DNA of 64,000 nucleotides, taken from positions 248,001 to 312,000 of the forward strand of contig CAUYUJ010000292.1 in the NCBI GenBank assembly GCA_963575745.1, given 5' to 3'. This DNA is from Prorocentrum cordatum. Lineage: Eukaryota. A program made the translations under genes and the position numbers. Under the pieces are notes generated by a model. The model did no database searches, was not told where the DNA came from, and saw only the letters and a program-made list of their open reading frames with translations. Below, piece after piece: positions 39,536 through 46,212 of this stretch (position 1 is the first letter of the stretch; each line of letters begins with the position of its first letter).

Positions 39536-39877
39536 AGGAGGAGGAGGGGGGGGAGGAGGAGGAGGAGGAGGAGGAGGGAGGGAGGAGGAGGAGGAGGAGG
39601 GGAGGAGGAGGAGGAGGAGGAGGAGAGGAGGAGGAGGAGGAGGAGGAGGAGGAGGAGGAGGAGGAGGAGAGAGAGAGAGAGAGAGAGAGAGAGAGAGAGA
39701 GAGAGAGAGAGAGAGAGAGAGAGAGAGAGAGAGAGAGAGAGAGAGAGAGAGAGAGGAGAGAGAGAGAGAGAGAGAGAGAGAGAGAGAGAGAGAGAGAGAG
39801 AGAGAGAGAGAGAGAGAGAGAGAGAGAGAGAGAGAGAGAGAGAGAGAGAGAGAGAGAGAGAGAGAGAGAGAGAGAGA
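39536..39877. repeat. (GGA)n + (GA)n microsatellite between the two LINEs
   Basis: Direct reading. Confidence 0.95.
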
Positions 39878-39897
39878 CCGTAGCCATTTGGCTCAAG
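39877..39897 (+). other. Dinoflagellate spliced leader (DinoSL) relic at the 5' end of a LINE
   Basis: ACCGTAGCCATTTGGCTCAAG versus canonical DCCGTAGCCATTTTGGCTCAAG: identical except for one missing T. It directly follows a (GA)n tract and is not followed by a GT SL-intron donor. Confidence 0.92.
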
Positions 39898-40051
39898 CCG
39901 TTGCCTGGGGCCTTCGCCTTCCCTGGGGTCGGGGCTCGAGCTGGTCACAGCGACCCGCGCGATCCTCTATCGGAAGCCCTGCCATGGGTGAGGATCCATT
40001 CATTTTCGGCCACTTTCAGCCTCGCAGACTCGTCAAGTCTGCGGTCGCGGC

Positions 40052-41259: not shown

Positions 41260-44200
41260 TGCACCGCGGCACTTGGTCACGGCGAATGTATCAGGTTGGA
41301 AAGGAGCTCAGTCGATTCTAACGGACAGCAGGCTTAGTGACGTTTCAGTGTTCTGCCTTCAAGAGTGCAGAGTTTTGCGCGATAATGTCTGTCAGCATGA
41401 GCGGTCCATGAGAAGCGAAGGTTTCAATTTGAGATTATCTTCAGCGGATGCGACTGACCAAGGGGGCATCTCCTCGGGCGTCGGCATCGCGGTCCGCCAG
41501 CACATCGGAGTTGGCGAACCGCCTCATGTACACAGACATCTCCTCCACTCGCGTTGCTCGATCGTGTGGGTGAACGGGTGCGTGAAGGGGGGCTTCTATG
41601 TCGTCAGTGTGTACATTCCAGATGGCGAGGGAGTTGCAGGAGCTAAAGGGCAGCAAATCATGAATCAGTTGGGAGAATTCCTGTTTGGGGCCCAGAAGCC
41701 CTTCGTCATATCTGGTGATTTCAACAGTTTGCCCTCGGGGGTTCAGAGTCTTCGGAGCGTTCAGAAGATGAGGGGTGTTGTGGTGAGTTGTAACATGCCG
41801 ACTTGTCGTGCGGGCAAAGCGTGGCGTGAGCTAGATTTCTTCGTGGTCTCGCATGAGCTCGTCGGGGTCGTCAGATCGCGTGAACGTCTATCGGACCCGG
41901 CGACTAAGACTCATTTCCCTGTCCGACTGTCTCTGGGAACCGATGCGCACTTGCAGCTTAAGTCGCGCATCAAGATGCCCATGCCTTTTCCGACAGAGAG
42001 GCCTATAGGACCAGTCCCACTGCCGCAGGACTGGTCAGATATCAGCAGTTCGTTCGAGGCGCTCGACGAGGCGCCGACGGCAGAAGGTTTCAATAATTTC
42101 TATGGGCAGCTATGCGATCGCATGGAGGCCGAGCTCTGCGATACTTTGAGCAGTCCTGTCTCGGATCGACCTAAGTACTGTGGGAGGAGTCGGGGTTTTC
42201 GGGTGGTGGAAAAGCCGACTCTGGATACGTCGAGGGACCGTTTCCGACATGTTCGAAACAGACGAGGAGTATGAGGAGATATCAGGTTTGGCTGGGGGAG
42301 TTGAGTTACCTGGTGAGCAAGGGGCATTCTTGGGAGTCCAAGGGTGTTCGCGACTTACTCTGGAGGCTTAACTGGTCGAACCCGGGTTTGGCAGACGTTC
42401 CAGGCTGGAAGCAATTTCACTCTTCTCTGCAGCTGACCGCGGACGTCGGCTTGGACGGCATCTCCGCGGGGCTGCACGCGTTGCGCAGCTTGAGGAGGCG
42501 GAGTTCAGGAGCAAGAGGACCAAGGAGTGGAGGAGCTGGGTACCCCAATCTTTGGAGTCTGGAGGGGGTGCGGTCTACAAGTGGACCAAGGAGCCTCAAG
42601 GATGGGCCCCTGACGCTGCGGGGCCAGCAGGAGCCCCTGCGGGGCCAGTGGGCACCGTCGAGCAGTTGCTTAGGGAATGACGTGAGATTTGGCACGAGGG
42701 CGAACCTTCTCGGCTTCTCGCTTCTGACCTGGACCTACCCTTGGGCGAACCTCCCCCTCCACCAACGGCCGAACAGCGCCGTGAGGTTCTCAAGAGGTTC
42801 AAAAAAGGGCACAACGGTCGGCATTGATGGTTGGAACCCTGGTGTTTTGAAATTGTTGAGCGACAAGGCTTTGACGGCCTACGGGTTGTTCCTCGGTTTA
42901 TAGAAGAGCACCTACTGATTCCTGAACAATGCGATGTATCATTGGTGGTTTTTCTTCAGAAGCCAGACGGAGGTCATCGACCCATAGGAGTTTTGGCAAC
43001 ATGCATCCGCATCCTGAGCCGACTCAGGCGAGATCAGGCCAACCAATGGGAACGGAATCGTGCCCTGAGCTGCGTGTGCGGCGGCAAGGGCAAGAGTTGC
43101 GAGCGTGCAGTGTGGCAGCAGGCGGCGCGAGCCGAAGCTGCAGAATCTATCGCGGCTAGTTCGGGCTCAGCGCTGATAGATCTAGAGAAGTGCTACGAGA
43201 AGACCCCCCACGATGTTCTTTGGAGGTCCTGTCAGAAGCACAGTTTCGACTTACGACGGGCTCGGCTTTTGTTGATGGTGTATGGAGGGCGGAAGATGAT
43301 CAAGGTGAGGGAGGTCGTCTCGTCGGTTATCAGGTTGAATCGCTCGATCATCGCGGGCTGTTCGTTTGCGACGACGTTACTGCGTGTTGTGCTGTGCGAT
43401 TCGCTAGTGTACATGCGTGATCGATGGCCGAGCGTGCACCTGTATGTCATGGTAGACGATATAACATTAGATCTATCGGTTCGGCACGTTTCGTTCGACA
43501 GACGCTAGCTGCTGCAGTCCCCGACGTGTGCAAGCAGTTGCAGCATCTGGAGCAAGTGGTTTCACGCAAGAAATGCCAGGTGCTGGCTTCTACTAAGGAG
43601 TTAGCGGCGCAGCTAGGCAAATATCTGCGTGCATATAGTTTCAAGGCATGCGCCAGCGTCAAGAACCTAGGGCACGGCTTCGCATTGCAGGCTCGTGCAG
43701 GTAAACCAGTGCAGAAGTCCAGGACCAGCAAACTCAGGAGGCGTGCGCATCGATTTCGGGCCCTCAAGCATCATCGCAAAAGGTTAACACGTGTTTACCG
43801 TGCAGGAGGTCTGGCCTCGGCCACGTACGGAGTGCGGGTCATGGGCATGCCAGATAGTGAGCTGCAGAAGTTGAGGGCTGTGTCGGCCTTCGCGCTCTTC
43901 GGCAAGGCCAAAGGCCGCTCGCGAGCTGTGCAGTTTTTGTTGTTGGACCCTCCAGATGCCGATCCGTCCTTCCAGGTGAACTCGCTCCCGCTGCTCACTT
44001 GGTTGTTGGCGCTGCACCAGGAATGGGTCCCCACAAACATGATGGAACAAATATTCCACAGGGCCTTAACACGGGCCCAGCAGGGATGGGGATACGTGCG
44101 AGGCCTTGCAAGGGCCGTCGTCCAAACCCTCAGGCGTCTCGGGTGGACGGCAAGGTCGTATCACATGTGGATTGACCCCCGTGGGCTCCAAGTTGACCTC

Positions 44201-45661
44201 CTTCACACTGGAATCCCCACCCTCAAAGCTGTTATCTATATGGGTATCAAGCGGCAGCTCGAGCAGGCGGCCGCCAAGCACCTCGGTTGGGAAGGTTTTG
44301 CGTTCCCGGGTCCTGTGAAAGCGGAGCTCAGGCAGCTTCGGGGACGTGGACCCTCGGCTCAGGCTGATCTGGTGGCCATTCATATGGCTGGGGGCCTCTG
44401 GACTCAGGATAAGACTTTCAAGAATAGGTACAGTATCGCTCGAGAATGCAGGTGGTGCTTGGGCGCTCCAGGTACCAGATCGCACCGTTTGTACAGGTGC
44501 GATGGTCTTGCTGGCTGGAGGCGCGAGCAGGGTTTCAACGAGCTGATTTCCATAGGCAGAGATTTCCCCGACAACCAGATGGTTGACTTCGGCTGCTTGG
44601 GTAGCAAGCGAGATGATCTTTCCCCTCCGCTGCAGGTCGGTGAGAGCCAAACGAGTTGGTACCCTCGGGGAGGACATCTAGGGGGACTTATATTTATTGA
44701 TGGGTCTGGGTTAAATCCTGATATTGATTGGATGTCGAGGGCGGGGTGGTCGGCATGCTCTCTCAGACCAGGCACGGAGGAGGTCCAAGCAGTTGCGTAT
44801 GGCCCCGTTCCAGGCTTGGTCCAGTCCTCAGGACTTGCCGAGCACTACGCGTTCCTGATGGCCCTGACCCTCATGCCAGCCAGAGCCACGGTCGTGACAG
44901 ATCACAAGAACTTGCTGCTGACCCTCGAGAAGGGCCCAGAGGTTAAGTGCTGCCCTACTCAGCCACATTGGGAGATCTGGAGGCAGATTTTCTGGAAAAT
45001 CGATGACATCGGGAGAGAAAACGTCGAGTTGGTTTGGATGCCTTCCCATCGGTCCAGGTCCTGGTATAGGAACCATGGGTATTCTGATGATTGGTTTCCT
45101 GGGAATGCCGCGGCTATGGGGCACCCTTCAGTGGCCCACGTAGATCAGCGTGTTGCAACAGCCATGCATGTAGGCAGTCAGTTTGTTCGGATGCTCAGAG
45201 GAACTTTGAGCAACCTAAGCCAGAGGGGTTTTCCTGATGTAGATAGAATTCCCAAGAAGAGTAAATACAAGCCTGTAGCTCTTGGGGCGGCCCAACCTGT
45301 GGTCACCCTCAAGATTGACAGGTCGGATAATAATCACCTCCTACACCTCGCAAGTGGGGTCTGGGGGTGTAGAGTGTGCGGCAGAACCTCCGTGAAGAGA
45401 AGCATTGTCGTGCAGGACCCCTGTCCAGGCAAGCCGCGTGTCCTGGCCAGGTGTCACGACACTCACAGAATGTGGAGTGTCAACGCTGAACTGTTCTTCT
45501 GTATGGCCTGTGGCTGCCACGCGCGGAGGCAGGTCAAGGACTTGGCCCTGCGATGCAGCCAAAGGCCAACCAGTGGTGCGGAGCGCTCACTCAAGTTGTT
45601 GCGCAAAGGTGTGGACCCAACCAGCAAGAAGGAGGTTGGGGTGCCATTCCCCGCCCACTAA
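41260..45661 (+). pseudogene. LINE ORF2 polyprotein (AP endonuclease, reverse transcriptase, RNase H), frameshifted
   Basis: Domains run in order across ORF-track pieces 40115-42274, 42271-42903, 42831-43508 and 43424-45661. Confidence 0.88.
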
Positions 45662-46212
45662 TTCAAATCGTCTGTGCGTGTCTTGCGCTGCGGGACACGC
45701 GCTCCGAGGCTCCAGAGGCTCCAGAGGCTCCAGAGGAGGAGGAGGAGGAGGAGGAGGAGGAGGAGGGAGGAGGGGGAGGGAGGGGGAGAATTCCTCCTCC
45801 TTCTCACTGCACCCCCTCGCGCGCCGCCGCTGGAAGGGACGGACTGGCGGGGGTAGGGCGTCAGCTGTGGCGCGAGCGCACCCAGCTTGCCTTCCTCCTC
45901 TCTCCTCCCTCCTCCTCCTTTTCCTCCTCCTCCTCCTTTTCCTCCTCCTCCTTTTCCTCCTCCTTTTCCTCCTCCTCCTCCTTTTCCTCCTCCTCCTCTT
46001 CCCGCCGCCCCTGAAGCGGAACAACTGAATCTGAATGAGCGGTCCTCGGCCAGCGACTGCGTGCAGCTGGCCCATCGCTCTCACGAGCGCGTGTGGGCGT
46101 GGAGCACGGGCTGCAGCTCTGGACAGGAGTCCGCCGGGCATTGCGCTGGGCACATGGATGTCGCTGCGAACCTTGGTGGTCCGCGTGTGCACGCAACCGC
46201 CGGCGGGCTCTC

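Follow-up and report, generated by a model that had tools for sequence, protein, structure and literature searches.

The closest described counterparts of the locus reported here are retrogenes of dinoflagellates that carry a DNA-encoded copy of the spliced leader found in dinoflagellates (DinoSL) directly upstream of the coding unit ('mRNA recycling'; accessible text of PMC5585692 and PMC12014239), as described by Slamovits and Keeling (2008, as cited) and by Song et al. (2017; PMC5585692). In the portion of PMC5585692 that was available, the gene ontology term 'RNA-dependent DNA replication' is enriched among relict-bearing genes, and both that text and the corresponding part of PMC6050394 call the enzyme that makes the retrogenes unknown, with a leaning towards long terminal repeat (LTR) elements. 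We analysed a window of 64,000 nucleotides (nt) of Prorocentrum cordatum DNA (contig CAUYUJ010000292.1, positions 248,001 to 312,000; all positions below count from the first letter of this window), in which a long interspersed nuclear element (LINE) at 39877-45736 likewise begins with DinoSL. We interpret this LINE as a broken copy of a multicopy non-LTR family that encodes an apurinic/apyrimidinic endonuclease-type (APE) domain, a reverse transcriptase (RT) and an RNase H-like domain, and the 5' end of its full-length form as a DNA copy of DinoSL that likely came from a trans-spliced RNA; we put the probability of this reading at about 0.7. In contrast to the known DinoSL-tagged retrogenes, the tagged unit is the multicopy retrotransposon itself, with its own endonuclease, RT, RNase H, tandem-repeat tail and microsatellite insertion site, and the window copy is without tandem relics.

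Several other systems resemble the element in part. The retrotransposons SLACS, CRE and CZAR, and NeSL, insert into spliced leader (SL) RNA genes and carry a restriction-like endonuclease downstream of the RT. Compared with these, the window element is of the APE type, lies in (GGA)n/(GA)n sequence, continues from the leader into its own untranslated region (UTR) and has an RNase H-like domain after the RT; the sequence-only reading that preceded this analysis had already separated it from the SL-gene-inserting elements, and the Exo_endo_phos domain and the non-SL flanks confirm this. The R1-clade LINEs Waldo, Mino, Kibi and Koshi insert into simple repeats, and their 3' end can pair with the target repeat. 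The window element is like these microsatellite LINEs in its simple-repeat site and its putative tail pairing, a likeness by description and not a clade assignment. SymbioLINE (de Mendoza et al., 2018; PMC5890265, text in part) has the domains Exo_endo_phos, RVT_1 and RNase_H, no poly(A), conserved 5' and 3' UTRs and target-site duplications, and the window element is alike in domain order and in having no poly(A). SymbioLINE-Dnmt carries a DNA methyltransferase in its first open reading frame (ORF1); Pfam found no such domain in the window element, the two being compared by description only. The main text of PMC5890265 mentions the spliced leader 0 times. The L1Tc/ingi elements of trypanosomatids are APE-type LINEs in polycistronic genomes with SL trans-splicing, and a conserved 5'-terminal module governs the making of their RNA; as far as the accessible parts of PMC1874656 and PMC8190864 go, Pr77 is an internal RNA polymerase II promoter that yields unspliced, leader-less RNA, whereas the 5' module of the window element is the leader itself. 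Finally, a Symbiodinium positive-strand RNA virus (Levin et al., 2017, as cited in the part of PMC9651163 available) is a selfish replicon whose genome starts with the host leader. It is an RNA virus without DNA copies with target flanks, whereas the window element is a retrotransposon.

At the 5' boundary of the element, the (GA)n tract runs to 39876/39877 and is followed by A (39877) and CCGTAGCCATTTGGCTCAAG (39878-39897), and then by CCGTTGCC. DinoSL as printed in PMC7245778 and PMC5585692 (both in part) is DCCGTAGCCATTTTGGCTCAAG, so the window leader matches 21 of its 22 nt; the difference is one T absent from the T run (the 3-T form), and the first leader base, A, is indistinguishable from the final A of the (GA)n tract. 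A scan with the leader 20-mer at no more than 3 mismatches gave 1 match in the window, where 0.01 would be expected (a match arose in 1 of 100 shuffled sequences). The canonical 21-mer at no more than 3 substitutions gave 0 matches in the same window, because the window difference is a deletion. The bases directly 3' of the leader are CCG and not the GT of SL RNA genes, which consist of an SL exon with a GT donor and intron and usually stand in tandem arrays; the leader is a single copy in the window, an Rfam search of 39000-46500 returned no family at the leader, and the flanks are microsatellites and another LINE. The sequence-only reading had stated that 21 of 22 nt of DinoSL begin where the (GA)n tract ends, and that CCG follows in a place without SL-gene context; both statements hold. 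The arrangement is that of a DinoSL-tagged retrocopy, with a DNA-encoded DinoSL directly 5' of a transcribed unit. Tandem truncated relics of repeated rounds are absent from the window copy, and matches to shorter relic motifs across the window are no more frequent than expected by chance. Elsewhere in the window, at 4919-5220 (+), there is a degenerate array of units of about 10 nt of the type GATGGCYCAAGA / GGCTCCAAGA, several of which resemble the 3' end of the leader with one mismatch; this is a simple repeat and does not consist of relics.

Copies of the element were sought in four public sequencing runs, namely a DNA run (X1), two metagenome runs (X2 and X3) and a run from the same study as X1 (X4). 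The sampled words of the element are present at 32% in X1, 14% in X2 and 7% in X3, and no contig of X4 matched the element. In X1, 301 contigs with 85-100% identity cover 30 of 30 bins of the element, with 56, 98, 97 and 50 contigs in the identity bands of 99% and above, 95-99%, 90-95% and under 90%, respectively. The family is multicopy, with young and old members. At the 5' end, two X2 contigs and one X3 contig stop matching exactly before 39878. The X2 upstream consensus, ...AACAAGGGCAGGAT, is purine-rich and ends in T, and its agreement of 0.73 indicates two different flanks; the X3 flank, ...GGAGGAGGAGAT, is also purine-rich and ends in T. Further pieces cover 39908-40032 and 40044-40256, from the UTR into the ORF. 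Because the leader and the UTR recur with other upstream sequence, the leader is the element's own 5' end, and the three junctions agree with the earlier proposal that it is part of a repeated element rather than of an SL RNA gene or host retrogene. The alignment of 5' junctions that the sequence-only reading had suggested as a check thus gave a common leader and UTR with differing flanks (3 contigs, X2 and X3), with the qualification that the X3 contig possibly represents the same locus. The first leader base is A in the window and T in the X2 and X3 contigs. One contig each of X1 and X2 carries an extra G (+G) behind 39896, and among the variants listed there is no +T in the T run, though the +G is listed 7 nt away; from these variants, other copies may share the 3-T form by inheritance through DNA, a weak indication.

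Leaders outside the window show how far the arrangement extends. A scan of metagenome contigs for the 3-T leader found 67 loci in many unrelated contexts, some followed by GT as in SL RNA genes, and none of the 67 is homologous to the element beyond the leader. The 3-T form is therefore not a family-specific tag, and the missing T is a common variant or mutation. In three of these loci (L013, L018 and L024) the 3-T leader is directly followed by GT, and L018 has a canonical 4-T copy 718 bp downstream with the same flanks, so natural SL RNA gene arrays can hold 3-T variants. A scan of IMG/VR with the 16-mer spanning the leader-UTR junction gave 38 loci, all of them chance matches; at none of the 38 is the 16-mer preceded by the remainder of the leader. 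We also inspected the 162 ORFs of at least 200 amino acids (aa) that lie within 3 kb downstream of 238 leader occurrences (186 loci), and a single one contains an RT domain. This ORF belongs to locus L010 (1018-4036, +, of a metagenome contig), a two-ORF LINE that starts with T and a 3-T leader at 1018-1038, followed by a 56-nt UTR, ORF1 and ORF2, the latter with Exo_endo_phos (2.9e-08) and RVT_1 (6e-13). The same junction was recovered from another contig (L038). A tblastn comparison of L010 with the window element gave no match. Because the two are unrelated, leader-headed LINEs exist in at least two lineages. Behind its leader, the L010 UTR contains CTCAAG and a twice-repeated CTCAAGTTGTTTTAG; the CTCAAG pieces may correspond to the truncated relics described in PMC12014239 (text in part), and a simple tandem duplication would look identical.

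At both leader-headed LINE loci, a different, 5'-truncated LINE on the opposite strand lies just upstream of the leader (35953-39500 in the window; L010:707-1024 (-)), with 35% (window) and 38% (L010) protein identity to its neighbour. This head-to-head arrangement, seen in two cases, may be fortuitous, or it may have arisen where the two cDNAs met at a single break.

Taken with the described behaviour of dinoflagellate mRNAs, the junctions suggest the following course of events. The RNA of the element, like other dinoflagellate nuclear mRNAs, would be trans-spliced to DinoSL, with an AG just upstream of CCGTTGCC as the acceptor. The element's own endonuclease would nick a purine-rich tract of the (GGA)n type, and the 3' tail, ending in ...CCAGAG, could pair with the nicked tract. 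The RT would then copy the RNA to its first base, and the leader would thereby be written into the genome as the first 21-22 nt of the element. Trans-splicing of the LINE RNA is probable on the evidence of the leader, the element's own proteins would carry out target-primed reverse transcription, and a preference for purine-rich microsatellites as targets is suggested by the sequence that flanks one full copy and three 5' junctions. A leader-marked LINE family would show that a non-LTR RT copies leader-capped RNA right up to the cap.

Leader relics are well known as marks of retroposed genes, and that a LINE should carry one is to be expected once pointed out, because nearly all dinoflagellate nuclear mRNAs are trans-spliced. 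What would be new is a possible promoter-less cycle, together with a candidate retrogene engine that has concrete tail and target signatures. Leader relics mark thousands of retrogenes in dinoflagellate genomes, and the signatures to look for at retrogene ends are a (GCTCCAGAG)n tail and purine-rich microsatellite targets, which makes the question countable. A literature search, with supplements outside its scope, found neither DinoSL described as the start of a dinoflagellate LINE family nor trans-splicing proposed as the way in which such a family is expressed; the supplementary tables of PMC8045281 and PMC5585692 list relict-bearing genes and could hold RT genes. According to the accessible part of PMC10666404, gene-prediction workflows drop gene models that contain transposable elements (TEs) before leader analyses, and this removal may explain the gap in the literature. 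Annotation pipelines that do so will miss leader-headed LINEs.

A number of observations speak against the derivation of the 5' end from a trans-spliced RNA. Four junctions are known in all (the window and 3 contigs); the X3 flank is (GGA)n like that of the window and thus may be the same locus in another strain, and no X1 junctions are found among the loose contig ends listed. No RNA run is among the public runs listed as carrying the element, and no relative of the element was found in the JGI metagenome contigs or in IMG/VR. The RT domain in only one (L010) of the 162 leader-downstream ORFs also counts against it, as do the incomplete leader (21 of 22 nt) and the broken state of the window copy. 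In two Symbiodinium genomes, the available part of 10.1101/783902 reports no overlap between the functions enriched in DinoSL-relict genes and those enriched in RT genes. Both other LINE remnants in the window are without a leader relic; they are truncated or degraded and hence carry little weight.

If the leader does come from trans-spliced RNA, a copy that has landed in the genome has to be expressed again, and here the evidence divides. One tentative possibility, which is the model of the sequence-only reading, is a promoter-less, self-renewing cycle, in which a sense copy within a read-through or polycistronic RNA would be cut at the last AG of the relic, receive a fresh DinoSL as its cap by trans-splicing, be translated and be reverse-transcribed again, so that each daughter would once more bear a single leader; such a cycle would also make SL-tagged retrogenes, whose engine is the enzyme named as unknown in the two papers cited at the outset. 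The single leader without tandem relics in the window and the non-leader flanks directly upstream in the three other junctions are as this cycle predicts, since a leader followed by CCATTT..CTCAAG would be expected had the internal AG (after CCGTAG) been used again. The relic-like pieces behind the leader of L010 suggest that such copies have probably been re-spliced and re-inserted, and the change of the first base from A in the window to T in X2 and X3 could be explained by different SL RNA genes (D in DinoSL is T, A or G). Against the cycle, a fresh canonical leader predicts 4 T, and the listed variants without +T argue weakly against it; no recognisable host gene from which read-through could come lies near the element (63 window ORFs, Pfam), the upstream neighbour is an inverted LINE, and the runs listed as carrying the element include no RNA. 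Use of the terminal AG would moreover be traceless and thus invisible in DNA.

A second possibility, equally tentative, is that the leader was acquired once, by an ancestral trans-splicing event, and is now heritable as a fixed leader or promoter, with transcription starting at or just before it and without trans-splicing. The transcript could start from an internal promoter, as in many LINEs, or the relic's TTT(G) could act as a core promoter, as has been proposed for retrogenes; in either case the RNA would possess a leader-like 5' end from the outset. Song et al. (PMC6050394, text in part) indeed propose a TTT(G) promoter motif in retroposed DinoSL, and L1Tc/ingi, with Pr77 and unspliced transcripts (PMC1874656 and PMC8190864, as above), provide an example of the internal promoter. 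A 3-T form possibly common to the contigs of three runs, among whose listed variants no +T occurs, would fit such inheritance, and full leaders encoded in DNA at the head of genes are found elsewhere too (IMG/VR contains 136 distinct ones, described below). The 67 metagenome loci weaken this argument: 3-T leaders are common in unrelated contexts, so the missing T may be a variant present in the host, a mutation private to one copy or a fault of the assembly. The first base, which differs between copies, also argues against a leader fixed once.

Two further proposals bear on the fate of leader-bearing copies. It is doubtful, though of wide consequence, that a class of LINEs has handed its 'promoter' to host trans-splicing, with the acceptor AG regenerated in its daughters and the same enzymes acting in trans as the retrogene engine. 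If this were true, trans-acting LINE enzymes would have produced those dinoflagellate genes, roughly 20% of the total, in which DinoSL relics are found. The idea of a retrotransposon living without a promoter of its own in a trans-splicing genome is testable, and trypanosomatid LINEs took the opposite route, with an internal promoter and unspliced RNA. That the leader-bearing copies are instead daughters of a few master copies and were never themselves re-used appears unlikely.

Explanations that need no trans-spliced LINE RNA fare worse. A leader derived from an SL RNA gene, an SL array or an older retrogene alongside which the LINE inserted, or a chance match, is very improbable. A single such junction occurs in the window, in a region pieced together from repeats and LINE remnants, as juxtaposition would have it; however, the chance expectation is 0.01 per window, CCG and not GT follows the leader and there is no array, the leader stands exactly at the repeat boundary, and the recurrence of leader and UTR with other flanks in two other samples largely refutes it. 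The L1 RT is known to jump onto U6 snRNA, and chimeric LINE retrocopies that arose by template switching are known in mammals. Despite this precedent, it is scarcely credible here that the RT, having come to the 5' end of an unspliced LINE RNA, switched to an SL RNA or to a free SL exon as its template, since a switch to SL RNA would leave the intron (GT...) between leader and element, which is absent, all four observed junctions fall on the same base, and a free 22-nt SL exon occurs only transiently, as an intermediate of splicing.

The coordinates of the element, its frame changes and its surroundings are collected in Table 1.

Table 1. Features of the leader-headed LINE and of its surroundings in the window (TRF, Tandem Repeats Finder; X1, public DNA run)
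Feature	Position	Strand	Basis and remarks
DNA-encoded DinoSL	39877..39897	+	Sequence, mismatch scan, published DinoSL
5' UTR	39898..40114	+	Starts CCG; first ATG of the long frame at 40115
N-terminal/ORF1-like part	40115..41275	+	CxxC..H motif at start, coiled-coil-like, then low-complexity R/S/A/P-rich
APE-type endonuclease domain, Exo_endo_phos	41336..41872	+	Residues 412-590 of the 40103-42274 frame
Frame change 1	42224	+	Other copies +A; X1: 2 contigs, depth 14.1/14.1, all contigs covering the site
Frame change 2	42896	+	Other copies +C; X1: 2 contigs, depth 38.7/38.7
Reverse transcriptase core, RVT_1	42957..43469	+	Residues 44-214 of the 42828-43508 frame; YVMVDD box
Frame change 3	43470	+	Some copies +A; X1: 1 contig, depth 10.7/18.9
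RNase H-like domain	about 44633..45115	+	Residues ~405-565 of the 43421-45661 frame; D425, E474, D493, H544 by motif
C-terminal Cys/His-rich motif, CRVCGR ... CMACGCH	45368..45520	+	Sequence only
3' tail (GCTCCAGAG)x4.1	45701..45736	+	TRF; no poly(A)
(AGG)x45 microsatellite, upstream flank, likely target tract	39536..39669	+	TRF
(GA)x106 tract abutting the leader, 99% pure	39667..39877	+	TRF
(GAG)x18 microsatellite, downstream flank	45733..45788	+	TRF
Unrelated 5'-truncated LINE, head to head with the element	35953..39500	-	RT 35% identical to that of the element; no room for APE
Third LINE, degraded, fragmented ORFs	58798..60735	-	RVT_1 2.9e-14; ~30% identical to L010 ORF2

The element is about 5.8 kb long, an APE-RT-RNase H LINE with the leader at its head and a (GCTCCAGAG)n tail at its end. 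With the APE domain upstream of the RT, multiple copies, a defined tail and no LTRs, it is an APE-type non-LTR retrotransposon, and within the window there is neither a second copy of it nor a terminal repeat. The UTR measures 154 nt if counted to the ATG at 40052, whose frame is closed in the window copy by a TGA at 40100, and 217 nt if counted to the ATG at 40115 that opens the long frame. The UTR of about 155 nt in the earlier reading thus corresponds to the first ATG and not to the start of the long frame. The coding part lies in four frames (40103-42274, 42175-42903, 42828-43508 and 43421-45661), each shifted by -1 relative to the previous one. The division into ORF1 and ORF2 that had been proposed has to be amended for the window copy, where no separate ORF1 is visible and the N-terminal part and the APE domain share one open frame. 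Pfam assigned no family to the N-terminal 395 aa (a TrmB match at E 0.12 is at chance level). The GC content by codon position hints at an extra frame change at about 40700-40800 into a frame that stops at 41199; this test is too noisy to be relied on, as for the 42260-42859 piece it picked the correct frame in just one window out of five.

The APE, RT and RNase H domains that had been read from the sequence are all present. Pfam detects Exo_endo_phos (E 1.1e-05, 25.7 bits, cut-off 24.5) and RVT_1 (E 9.4e-07, 29.2 bits, slightly below the cut-off of 29.6, with the YVMVDD box present). The RNase H domain gives no Pfam match in the window copy and is backed by RNase_H in 21 of 30 atlas matches (top score 0.95) and by the relatives, 8 of 15 of which have PF00075 at the corresponding position of the alignment. 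The short tandem tail noted earlier was also recovered; it starts 39 nt past the stop codon (45659-45661) and runs directly into (GAG)x18.

The window copy is broken by at least three one-nt frame changes, whose sites are not long homopolymers and coincide with 1-nt insertions in other copies. Because other copies carry one more base at each frame change, the ORF of the family is continuous. The window copy is either dead or mis-assembled.

Searches with the encoded protein place the element in a large LINE lineage, as indicated by the 1675 representative proteins that match the RT-RNase H part at E<=0.001. RVT_1 was found in 13 of 15 scanned relatives and zf-RVT in 2 of 15, and the RNase H after the RT and this zf-RVT are the only hints to a clade. 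A PDB sequence search gave 0 matches for the RT core; the RT-RNase H piece matched one entry, exonuclease III, at a sub-threshold E of 0.9. A word-indexed protein search found 0 matches of near length and 3 weak, nameless, longer proteins at 23-26% identity. Among the JGI metagenome contigs, a protein-guided scan with the N-terminal and APE piece gave 243 pattern matches, of which 0 were confirmed, and scans of IMG/VR with the RT-RNase H piece and with the ORF2 of L010 gave no matches.

The element is bracketed on both sides by repeats of the (GGA)n type, and the (AGG)x45 tract is the likely target because it is of the same repeat type as the downstream flank. No discrete target-site duplication is readable, because both flanks are microsatellites of this type. 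The (GA)x106 tract is not found in the flanks of the three other junctions, and may be filler at the 5' junction or a later expansion. Downstream, about 100 nt separate (GAG)x18 from (TCC)x36, and the two make up a long inverted pair of microsatellites (45733-46002). Sub-threshold Rfam matches to microRNAs and internal ribosome entry sites at 45731-46040 were rejected as artefacts of this (GAG)n...(TCC)n pair; MIR2118, for one, scored 46.6 bits where the gathering score is 85. In a Pfam search of the 63 window ORFs, three had a match and none is a convincing host gene near the element: a sub-threshold CDC45 (17829-18506) and, within the third LINE, its RVT_1 and a Hist_deacetyl match of 22 residues. 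No leader relic was found near the expected 5' end of the third LINE.

DNA-encoded leaders were also found in IMG/VR, where 136 distinct leaders occur in 119 loci (L068-L186, e.g. L079, L091, L120 and L140), mostly in bins of giant-virus metagenome-assembled genomes. The leader is canonical in 134 of the 136, and 129 of the 136 are preceded by A and thus show the full 22-nt ACCGTAGCCATTTTGGCTCAAG. Each stands behind an AT-rich, motif-like sequence (ATATAAATTTTA, ..CTAGTA). None of the 45 leaders listed is followed by GT, which is also outside the 8 commonest next dinucleotides. Many of the leaders lie directly upstream of ORFs, including DUF4116 repeats, ribonucleotide reductase, P11_C minor capsid, PolX-like proteins and helicases. 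The pattern suggests either giant viruses that infect dinoflagellates and carry the host leader at the start of many of their genes, or viral DNA that has become integrated into a dinoflagellate genome; a literature search of titles and abstracts found no paper on leaders encoded by giant viruses. At one contig end in the same collection (L136), a leader at the contig start is followed by an ORF with a viral RdRP_1 domain (4.9e-07), which fits the DinoSL reported at the 5' end of the Symbiodinium RNA virus (cited in the accessible text of PMC9651163).

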